This document shows, piece after piece, positions 10,194 to 16,912 of a stretch of 64,000 bases of DNA. The stretch's first letter is position 1. Every line of letters starts with the position of its first letter. The translations under genes were made by a program, and so were the position numbers. The notes beneath the pieces are model-generated. The model worked only from the letters and a program-made list of their open reading frames with translations. It had not been told where the DNA came from and searched no databases. This DNA is from Spirochaetia bacterium. Its GTDB lineage: Bacteria; Spirochaetota; Spirochaetia; UBA9216. The stretch covers positions 1,408,001 through 1,472,000 of the forward strand of contig OY776510.1 in assembly GCA_963675665.1 (NCBI GenBank). The letters run 5' to 3'.

Positions 10194-11735
10194 GTGAGCA
10201 ATCCTGAAGTAAAGGCCGGTTTTCTAACCAGAATTCTGTCAATTCTGTCAAGAGCATCGGATCCTGAAAGGGAAAAAAAGCGTCAGCTTAAAGATGTATA
10301 CAAACAGCTAAAGAATCATAAATACAAGTTTTACAAGCCAAAAACCGATGAAGCGCTCGCTGCTCTCGCCAAATTATTTTATGATATATATATAATTGCA
10401 GGTCCCGCAAAAATACTTCTCGATCATGCTGAAGCTTCTGTTGTTTTAAAAACAATTATCATTGAAAATTCATTTTCCGAAAATCAGAAAAATATCAGAG
10501 CGTCATTCGATGATACCGAAATCAGGGAAGCGGTTAAGGCCTCCGGAGGCAACGTAAAAAATGTTACCGAAGAGCTTAAATCAAATCTTGTAAATTTTTT
10601 CTCTATATTTGACACTGAAAAAGTTCGTGAAATAAACGCAACCTATAATCTGATGACAATCTTTCTGGAATTTATATCTTTCGATTATTACTTCTTTCTG
10701 AGGAAGTTTGATTCCAGGTTTCCGGAAAATGATTTTACCTATAATTCCAAATTTGAAGATATAAACGGTGAATATATTGTTGAAGATCTGAAAGATTTTC
10801 TTGTACTGATACCTTTTCTTGAACTTGATGCTTCCTGGGACTCCCTGTTCGACGTCCTCTCTTCCTATAAAGGCGCCGAACTGATGAACCGCAAGGACTG
10901 GCAGAAAATCCTTCGAAGAATCCGGGATGTTCGTCAATCCAAAATTCTTGAGCTCATGATCAAGGCAATTGATCAGGATCCTGCATACGCATACAGGGTG
11001 CAGAGGCCCAACAAGCATATTGTAGAAGATTATCTGAACAAGTTGAAAAGCCAGGTTGAACTCTCAATACAGAAGATCCTCAAGGAGCAGAGAACCAACA
11101 AAATTGACAGTCTTGCCGACAGAATTTTCGGAACGCATGCAATCTCAAGAATGAAATATTATACCGAAAAAGCCAACCTGGCTTTCGCCAAAAAAATGCT
11201 CGGAGGATATATATATATCGCGCCGATGAATTATCTGAAGGCGTTTCTGGTTGATTTCTGCAAAAAGGATATAAGAGAAATCAGCGATGTTCTTCTTATC
11301 AGGGGCAAGTGGACTACAAATATCAGTTCACAGCAGCTTTCCGAAGCCTTCTACGGACTGATGTCGACAGCAGAAGAGTTAATTACTTTTGATGAAAAAC
11401 TGTCTGAAGAAGGTGTGCGGGGCAGCGAGATAACAAAACTTCTGAAACGCCGTGACTCCGATAAAGCAAATATAACGCTGCTTCGAAAGCAATTAAAAGA
11501 GATTAATGATGATGCGCTCAGATTGATTAATACTACCGGGGTCCATCTTGTATCTATTGCAAAGAGTTTCAAGCTTGTTATTGAAGATTATCAGAAAAAA
11601 CCTCATGAATTGCTTACAAACTGGAAAGAGATAGAATCAATAATTGAAGGCGGAGTAGTGCCAAGGATGTCCGACATTTACAGGAAATGCTATTATTTTA
11701 TCCAGCTGCTTCAGTTTTACAACAAGAGCAAATAG
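10194..11735 (+). CDS. Conserved spirochete hypothetical protein (DUF5312-like)
   Basis: DPEREKKRQLK, FDYYFFLRKFD motifs; TTGACA(10146)-17-TAACAT promoter; family recalled, not searched. Confidence 0.65.
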   Translation: MSNPEVKAGFLTRILSILSRASDPEREKKRQLKDVYKQLKNHKYKFYKPKTDEALAALAKLFYDIYIIAGPAKILLDHAEASVVLKTIIIENSFSENQKNIRASFDDTEIREAVKASGGNVKNVTEELKSNLVNFFSIFDTEKVREINATYNLMTIFLEFISFDYYFFLRKFDSRFPENDFTYNSKFEDINGEYIVEDLKDFLVLIPFLELDASWDSLFDVLSSYKGAELMNRKDWQKILRRIRDVRQSKILELMIKAIDQDPAYAYRVQRPNKHIVEDYLNKLKSQVELSIQKILKEQRTNKIDSLADRIFGTHAISRMKYYTEKANLAFAKKMLGGYIYIAPMNYLKAFLVDFCKKDIREISDVLLIRGKWTTNISSQQLSEAFYGLMSTAEELITFDEKLSEEGVRGSEITKLLKRRDSDKANITLLRKQLKEINDDALRLINTTGVHLVSIAKSFKLVIEDYQKKPHELLTNWKEIESIIEGGVVPRMSDIYRKCYYFIQLLQFYNKSK

Positions 11736-11736
11736 C

Positions 11737-13743
11737 TTATTCAGTAAAATCGCCGAGGCTTGTATCGCCGACCGGTTTTTTAAATCCGGAAAAAACGACC
11801 GCAATTATCACGCAGTTAACTACCGAAGCGGCTGCGAAAATATTCCACTCCGGAGCTCCGGATGCAATGCTTCCGACGAATGAATAAAGTTTCAGGCTGA
11901 TAGTGTAGAGTTTTTCATCGTTCAGAAATAAAAGCGGCGCCATAAAACTGTTCCAGGCACTTATAACCGCCGTCATTACCGCGGTAGTTATAACCGGCCT
12001 GGACAGCGGCAGAATTATCCTGAAAAGGTATGCACCGGCCGGTTGTCCCTCAAGCAGGGCGATGTCGCGAAATGCCCGGGGCATTCGGCCCAGCCAGGCT
12101 GTTATTGTAAACATCGAAAAAGGAATACTGTGATATATCGAAATTATTATCAGTGGAACGTATGAATTGACCAGTCCGATTCGCTCAAATGAAGAATAAA
12201 GCGGTATCAATGAATGCATGCCGCCTGTTATGCTTAAAATCTGAATAAAGGTAAGCGCGGCTATTGTGGTTCCCCTGCCCCGACTGTTGAGCCATACTGC
12301 CGCCGGAAAGCATACGATTGGAACCAGTAAGCCTGTCAGTCCGGAAAGGATAATTGTGTTTCTGAAGTACAGCATAATGTTTTCTTCCAGAAACACAGTT
12401 TTAAAGCTGTTTAACCCGGCATGTGGAGGCAACAGACCGTCGATGTAGCAGGCGCTTACACCGGAAAAGCTCATCCAGATCAGAAAATAAAGAAGGGCGG
12501 CAGAGCTGATAATAAGAAAGAGAGATGAAAAGGTTGAAAAGCCGAGATTGAGGCTGCCGAGCAACGGAGAATTTATGCTCCGGGCAGTTCCAAAAGAGCT
12601 GTTTCTGCCTTTTTTCCGACAGCAGTACATGAGCGTAAAGACTGCAGGGAAAATCCCCGGATTGAAACCGGCGAGGAAACTGGTTTTAGCAATACAGAAA
12701 ACAATCCAGAGGCCGTGAATTATAACCGCCGCTCGGAAAAAGCGCTTGTTTATGAATCCTGTAAGATACAGTGCGGCCGGAACCAATCCTGCCTTCCGGG
12801 AGAATATTATCTGCAGAGCAGCTGTAATTATAATCAGGAATTTGAATTTTCTGTCGGCGCTGAAATTCCTGTTTTTGGTTACGTACCAGATCAGCATAAG
12901 CAGTATAACGATGCCTGCCATAATAACGGAGTAGGCGGACGATATCCCGTAATCGTCGGTGTTGTTGAAAACATCGAAGAGGAATGTATCCATTGTTGTT
13001 GTGGCTCCGATAACATATCTTTCGGTTATGCCTGAAAGAAGTGGCGGACCGCCTGATGTCATAAGAAAAATAAGGGTGAATTCCTTGAACCCTTTGATAA
13101 AGTTCAGCACTGCCATGACAATCAGCGAAGTTTTAATTTGGGGCAGATATATATGGTAGGCAATAATTCCCGTACCCGCTCCGTCAAGAACGGCCGCTTC
13201 AATACAGCTTTTTGATATTTTTTTAAGCGCGCCGTGAAGCACAAAAGCGGTAAGAGGAACTGTCATCCAGATGTTGACAACCATACAGCTGAAGAATCCG
13301 GCAATCGGGTCTGTCATCAGGTTGGCTTCTATTCCGAAGAGGGTTGTCAGAACGGAGATTCCACCGTTTCCGTGGATTATTGCCCGCCACAGCGGAACAG
13401 CTATATAAACCGGTATCCCCCACGGAACAAGAAGCGCTGCGTAAATAATATTTGAAAATCTTTTTCTGCCCGATAATGCAAGGGCAATTATAAAACCGAA
13501 AAAGATGCTCAGAAATGTGCTTAGTACCGCCCATAAGGAGGTTATATTAAGGCTGTAACCGAACCCGGCATCGGCTCCGAGATAACGGAAATTATCCAGC
13601 CCGGCAAATGTCCGAATGCCGTATGTGTCGTGAAAAAAGGAAGTTGTAAGCGCTTCAAAAAAAGGAGAAATTCCCGCCGCTGTTATGACCAGCAGGGCGG
13701 GAATGATAAAGTATATTTTTACATTGAATTTATATTTACTCAA
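11737..13743 (-). CDS. Fused double carbohydrate-type (MalF+MalG-like) ABC permease
   Basis: Two permease modules (GLDNF, EAAVLDGA, MTSGGP; DIALLEG, LPLSRP, SAWNSF) joined by a hydrophobic linker; overlaps the upstream stop. Confidence 0.9.
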   Translation of the reverse strand: MSKYKFNVKIYFIIPALLVITAAGISPFFEALTTSFFHDTYGIRTFAGLDNFRYLGADAGFGYSLNITSLWAVLSTFLSIFFGFIIALALSGRKRFSNIIYAALLVPWGIPVYIAVPLWRAIIHGNGGISVLTTLFGIEANLMTDPIAGFFSCMVVNIWMTVPLTAFVLHGALKKISKSCIEAAVLDGAGTGIIAYHIYLPQIKTSLIVMAVLNFIKGFKEFTLIFLMTSGGPPLLSGITERYVIGATTTMDTFLFDVFNNTDDYGISSAYSVIMAGIVILLMLIWYVTKNRNFSADRKFKFLIIITAALQIIFSRKAGLVPAALYLTGFINKRFFRAAVIIHGLWIVFCIAKTSFLAGFNPGIFPAVFTLMYCCRKKGRNSSFGTARSINSPLLGSLNLGFSTFSSLFLIISSAALLYFLIWMSFSGVSACYIDGLLPPHAGLNSFKTVFLEENIMLYFRNTIILSGLTGLLVPIVCFPAAVWLNSRGRGTTIAALTFIQILSITGGMHSLIPLYSSFERIGLVNSYVPLIIISIYHSIPFSMFTITAWLGRMPRAFRDIALLEGQPAGAYLFRIILPLSRPVITTAVMTAVISAWNSFMAPLLFLNDEKLYTISLKLYSFVGSIASGAPEWNIFAAASVVNCVIIAVVFSGFKKPVGDTSLGDFTE

Positions 13744-15166
13744 GAATTATCTTGACAACATTTCTGACGGCTTTTATTCCGTCCGGAATAAGCGCAGCAT
13801 CATTATCCCAGGCTACAACAAGCGGGAATTCATCTTCATCAAGATCTGATCCGTCGCCCTTGAACATCCCGATGATGACATCATTATTGCCGTCGAGCTC
13901 GGATGCGGCAAGAGCGATTGTATAACCGTCCGAAGCTTCAATTTTTACAGTTTCATATCCGCTGTATCTTTCCAGAAGCATATAAATCGGCATGCCCATG
14001 TAATCTTTAAGTTTTGTTTTCTTTTTATTCCACATTTCGACTACTGTGCGTGAGTTTGTAACCCCGGACATCAGTGTCTGGGCGTCCATTACCTCTGTGC
14101 CGGAGGTGCTTACAAGCGAGAGATTAAAATTCTTAAATGGAATATCCTTAATGATAATCTTTTTAACCATCCGGGCCGATACGTGTCCGGTGAAATTGGG
14201 ATTCTCCGGTCCTACTTTTACAAGTCGTATATATCCCGGATCTTCAGGCATATATTCGCCGTTTTCCCTGAATGCCAGGATCCAGTCGCCGTTTGAGTTA
14301 TCCAGAAGCTGTTCGCCGCTGTAGTTCATTGCATAGCCGTCCATGGCTTCGATGGTTATGCTCATGTCGGCCGAAAGATTTGTATATTCGTTTATCAGGT
14401 CGACTATCTTTACGCCGGCCCAGGTAGACTCAAATGTATTACCGTAGCTGTTTGTATAATTACCCTTGTCTTCAATATAATAATTCAGTTTTTCCAGCTC
14501 GCTGATTTTATATGATCCGGACTGTTCTCCAATCTCCAGTATCAGTTCAAAATCGTTGTTTTCAAGCGATACAGCTTCTATCGAAGCGGTAATTTCTGAA
14601 AGTTCTTTTACCCACAGCTGTCCGGAGACATTTCCGCAGGACATGGGTTTGATCTTCTCGCCGTTAACAGAGTCTGCTATGTAAATTTCATCGGCGGCGT
14701 GGTCAGCAGTGTTTATTGTAGCTGAATATCCGTCTGCTGCGGTCAGCGTAAGATCATAACCTGAATTCCAGAGGTCTTCCTTGAAAGAATAAGGCATTGT
14801 CGCATCGGCATCATCCACCATTGCTACAATTTTTACCAGAGGCATTGCCGTAACAGTCAGCATTTCGCCTTTTCTTTCGAACTGAAATTCTCCGTAACCG
14901 GAGGCCGGATCTTCTTTCCACTTTTCAAAGTTGGATTCCCATACTTCATCAGCTCTTGCGCCGCTGACATTTATAAGCCAGCCTTCGCCCTTGGGTGTTG
15001 CGTGTGAAGTATCGTCAATTTCCGAAATCTCGGCAGTTTTTGCCTCCTCCGATGAGACCGTTTTTGATGTAGTTGAGTTTTGGTCGGTTGCTGTTGCACA
15101 GCCGCTGCTGAGCAGAACAGCCGTAACAAGCAGAAGCATCAGTACTGATAAAATTTTTTTCTTCAT
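13736..15166 (-). CDS. Lipoprotein with three tandem sulfite-oxidase-fold (Oxidored_molyb-like) molybdopterin-binding repeats
   Basis: LSSGC lipobox; repeats TAMPL..AADGY..WVKEL, WAGVKI..AMDGY..ILAFRENGE..GYIRLV..ARMV, YMGMPI..ASDGY..FPLVV..AVRNV. Confidence 0.75.
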   Translation of the reverse strand: MKKKILSVLMLLLVTAVLLSSGCATATDQNSTTSKTVSSEEAKTAEISEIDDTSHATPKGEGWLINVSGARADEVWESNFEKWKEDPASGYGEFQFERKGEMLTVTAMPLVKIVAMVDDADATMPYSFKEDLWNSGYDLTLTAADGYSATINTADHAADEIYIADSVNGEKIKPMSCGNVSGQLWVKELSEITASIEAVSLENNDFELILEIGEQSGSYKISELEKLNYYIEDKGNYTNSYGNTFESTWAGVKIVDLINEYTNLSADMSITIEAMDGYAMNYSGEQLLDNSNGDWILAFRENGEYMPEDPGYIRLVKVGPENPNFTGHVSARMVKKIIIKDIPFKNFNLSLVSTSGTEVMDAQTLMSGVTNSRTVVEMWNKKKTKLKDYMGMPIYMLLERYSGYETVKIEASDGYTIALAASELDGNNDVIIGMFKGDGSDLDEDEFPLVVAWDNDAALIPDGIKAVRNVVKIILE

Positions 15167-15196
15167 AATATCTCCTACAAATATTTCCAGGGGTTT

Positions 15197-16687
15197 TCAG
15201 AAGTCCCGTTCTTCCATGTTTTTATCTACCAGGGTTTGAGTCTGTTTTAATACCTGGTCCGCCGGCAGTTTTCCGGAAATTGCAAATCTCAACATTTTCC
15301 ACATGATGTTTTTATAAACTGAATAAGCTTTGTCGGTCGGAATAATGACCCCGTCGGACGCGCTTATGCTGAGTGTTTCATAAAACGGATTTGTCTCTTC
15401 TGCAGTCAGCCATGCTTTCTCAAGGGCCGGCAATTTGGCTGTTTCGGATGTAAAACGCTGTTGAACCCCAATTCCCGTCAGGTATTCGATTAACCGGCGC
15501 GCTCCTGTTGTATTGTGTGAACGTTTTGAGATCGCAAAAGCTTTGAAATCAAGCAGCGGAGAAACCCTGATGCCTGTTTTATCGTTTACAGGAAGAGGCG
15601 CTGTTTCAAAAGGTATGCCCAGCTGTGTAAAATGGGGAATGCTGTATGATGCACTGATAATCATTGCCGTCTCTCCGGAAACAAAAAGAGAAGTCATTGC
15701 ATCTCTTTCCATCGGCTGCATAAGCTTGTTGTCCTGAAGCTCAAGGATGTATTCGAGCGCATCAAGCGTCGGTTTGTCGTCGATCAGTATCGAACCGTCG
15801 GATTCGACAAGAGTCTTTTTGCCGAATGCGAATTGAAACGGAATAAGAAATGACGCCGAGTATGAATTCCAGGCGGAAGGTATTTTTCCGTTTTGCTTAA
15901 CATTTTCACATGATCGTTCAAAATCGGAAAGCCGCCAGTTATTGTCAGGACGCGGGACAAGCTCGGGATTGTAGAAGATCATCTGTGCGTCATAATAGAA
16001 AGGAATTCCCCACAGTTTTTTATCAAGAGAGAATGCATCTATTCCCTGTTTAAATAATCCTTCTGTCGCCATGAAATCAAGATTCTGGATGCTTCCCGAG
16101 CGTGCCAATCTGTCGATGTAGCTTGACTGAACCATTATCACATCAGGAACACTGCCGTTAGCCTGTGTTGTCGATATAAGCTTTGAATCAGGTTTTGATA
16201 CTTCTACAATTTTAATATCGATAGAATGCAGATCCCCATAGCGCCCGATCTCGTCTCTGAGCAGTGAAATGCCCTCCCAGTTTACCCATATTTCAAGAGG
16301 ACTATATTCAAGTGTTTCGCAGTCAAGGTTGACGGATTTTATATTTGTATAAAGCCTGTTTTTGTAAAGAACAGACCAGCTGCCGTCTGTAGAAACCAGA
16401 TAGTGTTTTGACAGATTGTCGCCAAGGTCAGGATCGACAAGTTTTATGCGGCTGTCCGGGTTGTCCGAACCGAGAGAAAGGGTCCATGCTTCGTATACTG
16501 CCGGAAAAAGTTCGTCAAGGGAAATTCCGGTCATAACAGTTCCGAGAAAGGGGATAGGATATGATAACGACTGCAACTCGGTATTGCTGAATTCTTTCCA
16601 AATGGAATTGTTTACCGAGAACGATACTGCGTAGATATTAAGTGTAATAAATACAGCCGTGACAACAAGAACGGCCCTTTTAATCAC
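15197..16687 (-). CDS. Maltose/MalE-like ABC solute-binding protein with an extra ~130-aa N-terminal domain
   Basis: Signal peptide after GTG 16687 (AAAGGAAG SD); VPDVIM, LWGIPF, FYNPELV, LFVSGETAMII; the ORF-track 5' extension lies inside the riboswitch. Confidence 0.85.
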   Translation of the reverse strand: MIKRAVLVVTAVFITLNIYAVSFSVNNSIWKEFSNTELQSLSYPIPFLGTVMTGISLDELFPAVYEAWTLSLGSDNPDSRIKLVDPDLGDNLSKHYLVSTDGSWSVLYKNRLYTNIKSVNLDCETLEYSPLEIWVNWEGISLLRDEIGRYGDLHSIDIKIVEVSKPDSKLISTTQANGSVPDVIMVQSSYIDRLARSGSIQNLDFMATEGLFKQGIDAFSLDKKLWGIPFYYDAQMIFYNPELVPRPDNNWRLSDFERSCENVKQNGKIPSAWNSYSASFLIPFQFAFGKKTLVESDGSILIDDKPTLDALEYILELQDNKLMQPMERDAMTSLFVSGETAMIISASYSIPHFTQLGIPFETAPLPVNDKTGIRVSPLLDFKAFAISKRSHNTTGARRLIEYLTGIGVQQRFTSETAKLPALEKAWLTAEETNPFYETLSISASDGVIIPTDKAYSVYKNIMWKMLRFAISGKLPADQVLKQTQTLVDKNMEERDF

Positions 16688-16689
16688 CT

Positions 16690-16815
16690 GCACTTCCTTT
16701 CCAAACACGGGAGGCCCTGCTGTTTCCGGCAGAACCCTTCGATCTCCGTCCATCGAATAGCTGATATTTTTAAAAATAAAGCGAATTCTACAGGAATGAA
16801 GATTCGGAAGATATA
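16690..16815 (-). ncRNA. Moco RNA motif riboswitch, P3-less (tungsten-cofactor-type) variant
   Basis: Minus strand reads CTTCC-GA-ATCTTC..CCTGTA..GATGG..GGAGAT-CGAAGGGTTCTGCCG-GAAA-CAGCAGGGCC-TCCCGTGTTTGGA-AAGGAAG, i.e. P1, P2 with receptor-like motif, P4 with GAAA loop and P5; matches the GCCTCCCGT...GGAAAGG signature. Confidence 0.85.
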
Positions 16816-16827
16816 ATTATCGAATAA

Positions 16828-16856
16828 AGTTTAGCCTCTCACTATTAAAAGGTCAA
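16828..16856 (-). promoter_or_regulatory. Sigma70 promoter of the riboswitch operon
   Basis: TTGACC(16856-16851)-17 bp-TAAACT(16833-16828), just 5' of riboswitch P1. Confidence 0.7.
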
Positions 16857-16880: not shown

Positions 16881-16912
16881 TGCGGCCGGAAGCGGTTAGC
16901 TCGCCGGCCGCA
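16881..16912 (-). terminator. GC-rich hairpin after the acyl-CoA ligase gene (possible terminator)
   Basis: TGCGGCCGG...CCGGCCGCA inverted repeat; weak U tail on the - strand. Confidence 0.45.

Follow-up and report, generated by a model that had tools for sequence, protein, structure and literature searches.

Operon layout and its three proteins

The DNA analysed here (the window) is a stretch of 64,000 nucleotides from a Spirochaetia bacterium (GenBank assembly GCA_963675665.1, contig OY776510.1, positions 1,408,001 to 1,472,000). Its - strand carries an operon for a substrate-binding protein (SBP), a lipoprotein and a fused permease of an ATP-binding cassette (ABC) transporter, preceded by a riboswitch for the molybdenum or tungsten cofactor (Moco or Wco). 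A reading of the letters alone, referred to below as the original prediction, had proposed that this operon imports the intact cofactor or a related pterin. All five elements that it described were confirmed on the - strand, in the order promoter-like site, riboswitch, SBP gene, lipoprotein gene and fused permease gene, and its coordinates were correct.

The riboswitch aptamer occupies positions 16678-16821 of the - strand. An Rfam scan of the window returned a single match over its gathering score, RF01055, the family that had been named in advance as the one to look for. The match scored 60.8 bits (cmscan, E 3.8e-12; gathering score 36) and spanned the full model, positions 1-135. In the alignment the P3 hairpin columns were deleted and P2 contained a 26-nt insertion; the absence of P3 places this aptamer in the P3-less ('Tuco') subtype. 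P3-less RNAs have been tied to tungsten-cofactor genes (Regulski et al. 2008, PMC2408646), and the same paper reports two of them in Syntrophomonas wolfei, located 5' of 'putative sulphite oxidase' genes. The S. wolfei cases may represent an earlier observation of this riboswitch paired with a protein of the sulphite oxidase (SUOX) fold.

The 3' arm of the aptamer, GGAAAGGAAG (16702-16693), is the arm of the P1 closing helix and carries the ribosome-binding site of the SBP gene. Because of this site and of homology, we placed the likely start codon at a GTG at 16687, 5 nt past the AGGAAG of the arm, which gives a gene at 15197-16687 on the - strand (496 aa; open reading frame (ORF) as listed, 15197-16753). 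A purine-rich 3' arm (GGAAAGGAAG or a variant), followed after about 4-8 nt by ATG, GTG or TTG, was present in the window as well as in 22 of the 23 related loci inspected; the spacing was read by eye, and the frame was confirmed only where the tblastn match reached the first residues. Since the 3' arm is one strand of the closing helix, the ribosome-binding site should become inaccessible once ligand is bound, and the anatomy of the aptamer thus suggests a translational off-switch. Upstream, 7 nt 5' of the aptamer, the sequence TTGACC-17-TAAACT (16856-16828, - strand) is a candidate sigma-70-like promoter by consensus match only. Its position is the sole point in its favour, as the region holds 12 such sites compared to 9.5 expected from shuffled sequence, a count not above chance.

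The SBP matched families PF13416 (1.9e-22) and PF01547 (9.2e-19). When a profile built from 29 SBP orthologues was compared with the PDB, MalE structures came out on top (6dtu, MalE1 of Thermotoga, 1.4e-35; 2gha, 1.5e-35). No match at E <= 0.01 was obtained to the ModA/TupA-type families PF12849 (PBP_like_2) and PF13531 (SBP_bac_11). The predicted structure, with a predicted local distance difference test score (pLDDT) of 91.2, consists of an N-terminal signal or anchor helix, an extra beta-rich domain (approximately aa 20-125) and a MalE-like domain of two lobes. We also considered whether the extra domain is a fourth repeat of the kind found in the lipoprotein and rejected this, as the hhalign probabilities for aa 20-128 with the three lipoprotein domains were 0.7%, 6.4% and 0.9%.

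The lipoprotein gene (13736-15166, - strand) encodes 476 aa. A lipobox Cys23 and a disordered linker (aa 24-57) are followed by three beta-rich domains, which AlphaFold2 modelled with a mean pLDDT of 88.0: domain 1, aa 60-197 (14576-14989); domain 2, aa 199-345 (14132-14572); and domain 3, aa 346-476 (13739-14131), all on the - strand. Domain 2 is the sole part called by Pfam, and the match to PF00174 (Oxidored_molyb) covers aa 241-347 only (38 bits, profile positions 63-168 of 169). No other PF00174 match was found in the genome of the window. Comparison of the domains with one another by hhalign gave 98.9% for domains 1 and 3 (E 3e-17), 95.3% for domains 2 and 3 (E 2e-8) and only 68% for domains 1 and 2. 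This homology upholds the description of the protein as a triple molybdopterin-fold lipoprotein, with the specification that the nearest structural match of the domains is PruR, a proven periplasmic pterin binder. Each domain fits the truncated SUOX fold of about 135 aa that marks PruR-type proteins. The link to PruR rests on structure, because the matches of the lipoprotein profile to PDB sequences were marginal (E 0.35 and E 0.52 only).

PruR is described as periplasmic, with a degenerate SUOX fold, a predicted lipidation site and no molybdenum-binding Cys, and its pterin ligand is sandwiched by a Tyr and a Trp and hydrogen-bonded by an Asn (PMC11194511). In alignments of 13 and 87 sequences of the lipoprotein family, the lipobox Cys23 was the one Cys column conserved at 90% or more. 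The family therefore lacks the molybdenum-coordinating Cys, in agreement with PruR-type proteins and in contrast to SUOX-family molybdoenzymes. Conservation peaks in domain 2, at D309-P310-G311-Y312-x-R314 and H328-x-S330-x-R332-M333. HMMER aligns the D-G-Y of this domain with the N-D-Y of 7kom, but weakly (E 0.52), and the correspondence is a lead only; D-G-Y or D-G-F is kept in all three domains. By sequence reading the signal is of the Sec lipoprotein type, and its lack of a twin-arginine motif argues against export of a cofactor-loaded enzyme. Among 8000 candidates scored, 164 relatives were found at E <= 0.001; the named sources are nearly all Spirochaetota, and the names given are 'molybdopterin-dependent oxidoreductase', 'DMSO/TMAO reductase YedYZ catalytic subunit' and 'hypothetical'.

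The fused permease gene (11737-13743, - strand; 668 aa) contains two BPD_transp_1 stretches, and its reading frame shares 8 nt with that of the lipoprotein. The first half is nearest to MalF/UgpA and the second to GlcU/ModB/MalG (MalF 3.9e-18, GlcU 5.3e-14, ModB 7.2e-13, MalG 6.8e-8). The family matches thus agree with the proposed MalE-like SBP and fused MalF-MalG permease, and equivalog cut-offs were missed for both: all permease matches were far under theirs, and the SBP scored 71.6 bits for the MalE equivalog NF007011, which has a cut-off of 291. The fusion is a single open frame in 27 of the 28 related loci that hold both halves; in the other, L026, the frame changes.

Family scans of the ORFs in the window operon detected no ATPase gene, nor was one present in the operon at any of 32 related loci. 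In the family scan of flanking genes, which took in 107 of 201 flanking ORFs, ABC ATPase ORFs were located near the cassette in three loci, in L026 beside a MacB/FtsX permease and in both L045 and L050 upstream in divergent orientation; the operon itself held none of them. A single shared ATPase of the MsmX/MsiK type serves many CUT1 systems. The genome of the window contains an orphan UgpC/MalK-type ATPase at approximately 2.073-2.074 Mb (NF008653, 499.9 bits compared to a cut-off of 432), beside a corrinoid-activation gene, a regulator and pepF, and it is possible that this ATPase could serve the importer. It was identified from the ORF list and an NCBIfam scan; a tblastn and permease-proximity scan was discarded as insensitive, having missed the permease beside the wtp ATPase.

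Complex prediction for the SBP and the lipoprotein gave a score of 0.60 (individual runs 0.60, 0.63 and 0.56), compared to 0.00 for the best of three controls. The runs agreed in at least 70% of contacts, with partner pLDDT of at least 82. Of 157 solved complexes, 116 reach the mark used, as do 2 of 215 mismatched pairs; those that reach it with a score of 0.60 or under are only 18 of the 157 solved complexes and both passing mismatches. The models lend weak support to a contact between SBP and lipoprotein.

Distribution of the cassette and of cofactor synthesis

A pattern scan with one genome per species yielded the 32 loci, of which 31 are labelled Spirochaetota and one (L033, JAFGWC010000078.1) Bacteroidales. 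The cassette match identities and residue ranges of L033 are identical to those of L036, a locus of the Sphaerochaetaceae, and L033 may be a mis-binned contig. By tblastn, the SBP was located upstream of the lipoprotein in all 32 loci and the permease downstream in 30, the remaining two being cut by contig ends; the order SBP-lipoprotein-permease was kept in 32/32. RF01055 was detected over threshold upstream of the cassette, on the same strand, in 24 of the 32 loci, as expected if the three orthologues travel with the motif. Two loci without a match (L023 and L040) have contigs cut inside the SBP gene, and in the genome of L023 (G005) a separate 1.7-kb contig contains the riboswitch and the 5' part of the SBP gene. 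For L049, the genome (G031) has a sub-threshold match of 28.8 bits directly before the SBP gene.

We searched six-frame translations of the 32 carrier genomes with Pfam families for tungsten and molybdenum enzymes and for genes of cofactor synthesis and metal uptake. Genes of the AOR (tungsten-type aldehyde oxidoreductase) family (PF01314) were present in all 32, with fragments only in G029, which bore out the suggested co-occurrence with tungsten or molybdenum enzymes. MoaC was present in 18 genomes and the MoaA C-domain in the same 18, MoeA_N in 15, MoaE (a weak marker) in 8, TupA-like genes in 12, all of them among the 18 that keep MoaA and MoaC, and WtpA-like genes in 4. The remaining 14 genomes (G005, G007, G010, G014, G019, G022, G023, G025, G026, G027, G029, G030, G031 and G032) lacked MoaA, MoaC, MoeA, MoaE, TupA-like and WtpA-like genes altogether. 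PF00994 was rejected as a marker, being confounded by matches in frames of 412-465 aa, which we take to be CinA-type proteins; in the 14 genomes it was found only in frames of 422-465 aa (six genomes) or not at all (eight genomes). The original prediction had expected moaA and moaC to be missing from genomes with the operon. This held for 14 of the 32 carriers, and for moaC in 27 of the 54 carriers of the class-wide sample described below, but not for the genome of the window, which has both genes.

Joint loss of these genes through incompleteness of the assemblies is unlikely, since in the genome of the window the moaA, moaC and moeA genes are spread over four well-separated loci. Of the 14, G014 is recorded as a single chromosome; this genome of the Sphaerochaetaceae lacks the whole pathway and has zero RF01055 matches. 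Across the 14 genomes there are 19 copies of RF01055, of which 11 precede the cassette and 6 an AOR-family gene (17/19 together); two are unassigned, and the cassette is the only operon other than AOR assigned to their riboswitches. P3 was missing in all ten of the copies from these genomes that were inspected. Three other single-contig genomes of the Sphaerochaetaceae (G013, G016 and G018, with loci L031, L034 and L036) had MoaA, MoaC and a MoaB-like protein but neither a MoeA_N match nor a TupA/WtpA-like gene, and their cassettes are not preceded by a riboswitch.

The association was also assessed in an even sample of 401 genomes of the class, which overlaps in part with the 32 carriers; AOR was called at E <= 1e-40 and MoaC was the sole pathway gene scored. 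The lipoprotein was found in 54 genomes, AOR in 145 and MoaC in 159. Among the 54 lipoprotein carriers, 52 had AOR and 27 were without MoaC. The cassette was present in 26 of 42 genomes that had AOR but no MoaC, compared to 26 of 103 with both (odds ratio 4.8, Fisher p 5e-5, a value that overstates the significance because relatives are not independent). The 26 carriers with AOR but no MoaC fall under 13 family labels, and 17 are at least 90% complete. Eight of these 13 families also contain carriers with MoaC, which suggests repeated loss.

In the genome of the window, RF01055 is present in 11 copies. Besides this cassette, the copies precede a ferredoxin with AOR, TupABC, a Wtp/Mod-type ABC system, five FecCD/Peripla_BP_2 ABC systems, the genes purB-guaB-purA-guaA and an NAD-type aldehyde dehydrogenase. 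None of the 11 copies has moaA, moaC or either of the two moeA genes of this genome nearby. The five FecCD-type systems, all outside the window (2928862-2935861, L009; 2532611-2539610, L011; 554939-561938, L013; 3877638-3884637, L016; and 2506618-2513617, L017), are of the siderophore/B12 class. Large radical-SAM proteins of 307-750 aa accompany three of them; in one system a double binding protein of 666 aa is encoded, and in one a Big_5 protein. Since none was found among the assigned RF01055 copies of the 14 genomes without cofactor synthesis, these systems may serve to acquire metal for de novo synthesis, for example as a tungsten chelate.

RF01055 and a terminator-like hairpin precede purB-guaB-purA-guaA (L010, 3452594-3459593, outside the window). 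As the pyranopterin is made from GTP, the supply of purine nucleotides seems to be tied to cofactor status. The aldehyde dehydrogenase (PF00171) stands directly behind RF01055 at L015 (2454672-2461671) and also at L046 (10340-12087), with its ribosome-binding site and ATG inside the aptamer 3' end, the same design as in the cassette. Judged by this arrangement, it looks like a cofactor-free substitute for AOR that would be made when the tungsten cofactor is short. Isozymes independent of B12 behind B12 riboswitches offer a comparison.

The 5' neighbour of the cassette in the window is an acyl-CoA-ligase-type (AMP-binding) gene that ends in a terminator-like hairpin (16892-16911). Such a gene is also upstream of the cassette in L019, L020, L021, L027 and L042, and it was considered as part of the system and set aside as synteny. 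The convergent 3' neighbour of the permease encodes a 513-aa DUF5312 protein (10194-11735, + strand) and recurs in L019, L020 and L021; the recurrence probably reflects no more than synteny between close relatives. Just 3' of the cassette, L023 (4053-5190, with an FMN_bind protein) and L024 (10989-11735) encode a Fer4_5 polyferredoxin-like membrane protein, and a 390-aa Fer4_5 protein is encoded near the riboswitch-controlled AOR in the genome of the window.

Proposed function and competing explanations

The computational tests support the importer reading of the original prediction, with the substrate itself inferred. We think it probable that the operon encodes a CUT1-type ABC importer, repressed by its riboswitch, that salvages Wco or a close pyranopterin: tungsten-bound molybdopterin (W-MPT), molybdopterin (MPT) or cyclic pyranopterin monophosphate (cPMP). 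A cell that cannot make the cofactor yet keeps the riboswitch for it is most easily understood if the gene under control imports that cofactor. As the 14 genomes without MoaA and MoaC lack MoeA and tungstate transporters too, metal-loaded cofactor would be the simplest cargo for them; MPT or cPMP is a possible cargo for genomes that retain later steps of the pathway.

In the mechanism that we propose, high levels of free cofactor would close the aptamer, hide the ribosome-binding site and stop translation, and the operon would be expressed when the cofactor is scarce. The lipoprotein, held outside the cytoplasmic membrane, would capture or shield the labile pterin cofactor in at least one of its three domains. 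It would then hand the cofactor to the membrane-anchored MalE-like SBP, which would dock on the fused permease, and a shared ATPase of the UgpC/MalK type, with its gene at another place in the genome, would power import. Cofactor that has entered the cell would then be inserted into AOR-family apoenzymes. Genomes that keep the pathway, including that of the window, would be spared synthesis by the system, and for roughly half of the carriers, in which the pathway is lost, the system would be the only source of cofactor. A bolder version can be put forward only tentatively: that the cassette imports intact, metal-loaded Wco as a shared 'vitamin' of anoxic communities, and that about half of the carrier lineages are auxotrophic scavengers, which depend on the triple pterin-domain lipoprotein and the MalE-like SBP after repeated loss of tungstate uptake and of Moa/Moe.

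Several observations weigh against import of the cofactor. The cofactor is chemically labile and would have to cross the spirochaete outer membrane. The pocket of PruR was judged too short for whole Moco (PMC11194511; PMC13259868), and by alignment reading domains 2 and 3 of the lipoprotein have no evident counterpart of its stacking Trp. The genome of the window has MoaA, MoaC, two MoeA, TupABC and a Wtp/Mod-type system, so the importer is not essential there. Five loci of the Sphaerochaetaceae type (L031-L034 and L036) have the cassette without any RF01055 match. The AOR genes stand behind the same riboswitch class, and therefore co-regulation alone cannot separate a supply gene from a gene of the AOR pathway. 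In the class-wide sample, the cassette is missing from 16 of the 42 genomes that combine AOR with a lack of MoaC, several of them 93-99% complete, so the cassette cannot be the sole route; four of these 16 have weak AOR matches only (E 1e-41 to 1e-55). PF00384-family proteins were found in three of five auxotrophs tested and, if they are real bis-pyranopterin guanine dinucleotide (bis-PGD) enzymes, have cofactor needs that are left unexplained. Lastly, most carriers are metagenome bins, genes were called absent on the strength of Pfam searches of six-frame translations, and MoaE was given little weight as a marker since it was found in only 8 of the 18 genomes with the rest of the pathway.

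We compared this reading with four other explanations. Moco/Wco riboswitches are common before oxyanion transporters, and in the genome of the window they precede TupABC, the Wtp/Mod-type system and the five FecCD-type systems; together with the weak ModB match of the second permease half (7.2e-13), this could indicate that the operon takes up metal only, as a new importer of tungstate, molybdate or a tungsten chelate whose lipoprotein binds the oxyanion or metallophore. We regard this as unlikely, as metal alone gives no cofactor to the 14 of 32 carriers without MoaA, MoaC, MoeA and MoaE, the SBP is MalE-like with no PF12849 or PF13531 match, and the best match of the lipoprotein domains is a pterin binder. 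An import of a sugar-like or other organic nutrient whose aldehydes AOR oxidises, with the riboswitch shared for co-expression with AOR, seems equally improbable. It would account for an SBP and permease nearest to sugar-type CUT1 components, for a cassette nearly confined to genomes with AOR (52/54), and for AOR genes that carry the same riboswitch class and adjoin the cassette in 4 of the 32 loci. It gives no role to three PruR-type domains, however, does not explain the enrichment in genomes with AOR but no MoaC, and leaves those genomes without a candidate source of cofactor. With the ribosome-binding site in the closing helix, moreover, abundant cofactor would be predicted to repress the operon, the reverse of what suits a catabolic route that depends on the cofactor.

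The structural match to PruR, with its pocket sized for small pterins rather than for whole Moco, could also point to uptake or sensing of non-Moco pterins of the monapterin or neopterin type, linked only indirectly to tungsten enzymes. We give this explanation little credence, somewhat less than the previous two: the sensor that controls 24 of the 32 loci is a Wco-type riboswitch and not one for folate or another ligand, the association with AOR and with loss of Moa/Moe is unexpected for folate-branch pterins, and no DcpA-type (GGDEF/EAL) partner was present among the 107 flanking ORFs scanned. That the lipoprotein is an extracytoplasmic redox enzyme of SUOX type, functionally unrelated to the adjacent transporter, would follow the PF00174 match and the source names of its relatives, 'molybdopterin-dependent oxidoreductase' and 'DMSO/TMAO reductase YedYZ catalytic subunit', and is very improbable. 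The family has no conserved molybdenum-binding Cys and matches positions 63-168 of 169 of the profile only, a Sec-type signal without twin arginines would not be expected to allow cofactor loading in the cytoplasm, and the gene is fixed between those for the SBP and the permease in 32/32 loci.

If cofactor salvage is indeed the function of the cassette, it would become clear how genomes that encode tungsten enzymes and lack the cofactor pathway are able to function, and the Mo/W cofactor would join the cofactors that are cross-fed in microbial communities. This cofactor is usually regarded as too labile for exchange; nematodes take up Moco from their bacterial food. Annotation would be corrected for a lipoprotein named 'molybdopterin-dependent oxidoreductase' and for proteins whose closest scores are to sugar ABC-transporter components. 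The PruR fold would extend from signalling to nutrient capture, and a compact three-gene system would be available for direct tests of cofactor uptake.

Relation to known systems

The operon looks like what would be the first bacterial uptake system for the tungsten or molybdenum cofactor. In accordance with the original prediction, which knew of no characterised bacterial importer of this kind, we found none in the literature outside subscription journals; in what could be searched of it, no paper described a bacterial Moco/Wco importer or joined the Moco riboswitch with spirochaetes. A 2026 review (PMC13259868) describes the route of pterins across bacterial membranes as unknown.

PruR of Agrobacterium tumefaciens and other Proteobacteria (PDB 7kou/7kos, 7kom, 7kp2 and 7rkb; PMC11194511) is a single domain, whereas three are fused in one lipoprotein here. 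Its partner is a DcpA-type enzyme of cyclic di-GMP (c-di-GMP) metabolism; the partner of the lipoprotein is an ABC importer, with SBP and permease in 32/32 loci, under control of a Wco riboswitch. The sequence similarity of the two is marginal (E 0.52), the N-x-Y contact of PruR corresponds to D-G-Y, and the stacking Trp is not evidently kept.

The transporter components resemble MalEFGK2 and other CUT1 importers in the MalE-like SBP (6dtu, 1.4e-35), in the two permease domains of MalF/MalG type and in the absence of an ATPase gene from the operon. They differ in the fusion of the permease halves, the extra N-terminal domain of the SBP, the obligatory lipoprotein, and a cofactor riboswitch in place of a sugar regulator. 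TupABC, WtpABC and ModABC share with the cassette that they are frequent targets of the same riboswitch, and in the genome of the window Tup and Wtp/Mod-type systems are both found behind RF01055. Their SBPs, however, belong to PF12849 and PF13531, their operons contain an ATPase of their own with a TOBE domain, and TupA/WtpA-like genes are absent from the 14 genomes.

Riboswitch-controlled importers are familiar for vitamins, with the B12 riboswitch before BtuFCD and the thiamine pyrophosphate (TPP) riboswitch before ThiBPQ or YkoEDC. As in those salvage systems, a sensor of the finished cofactor would repress the importer, with importer, riboswitch and cofactor-dependent enzymes all retained in auxotrophs. 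The present system differs from them in its Mo/W pyranopterin class of substrate, its membership of the CUT1 family and the added multi-domain capture lipoprotein. A riboswitch-controlled ABC importer for cofactor salvage is a known kind of system, and the proposed substrate class and accessory protein are what is new.

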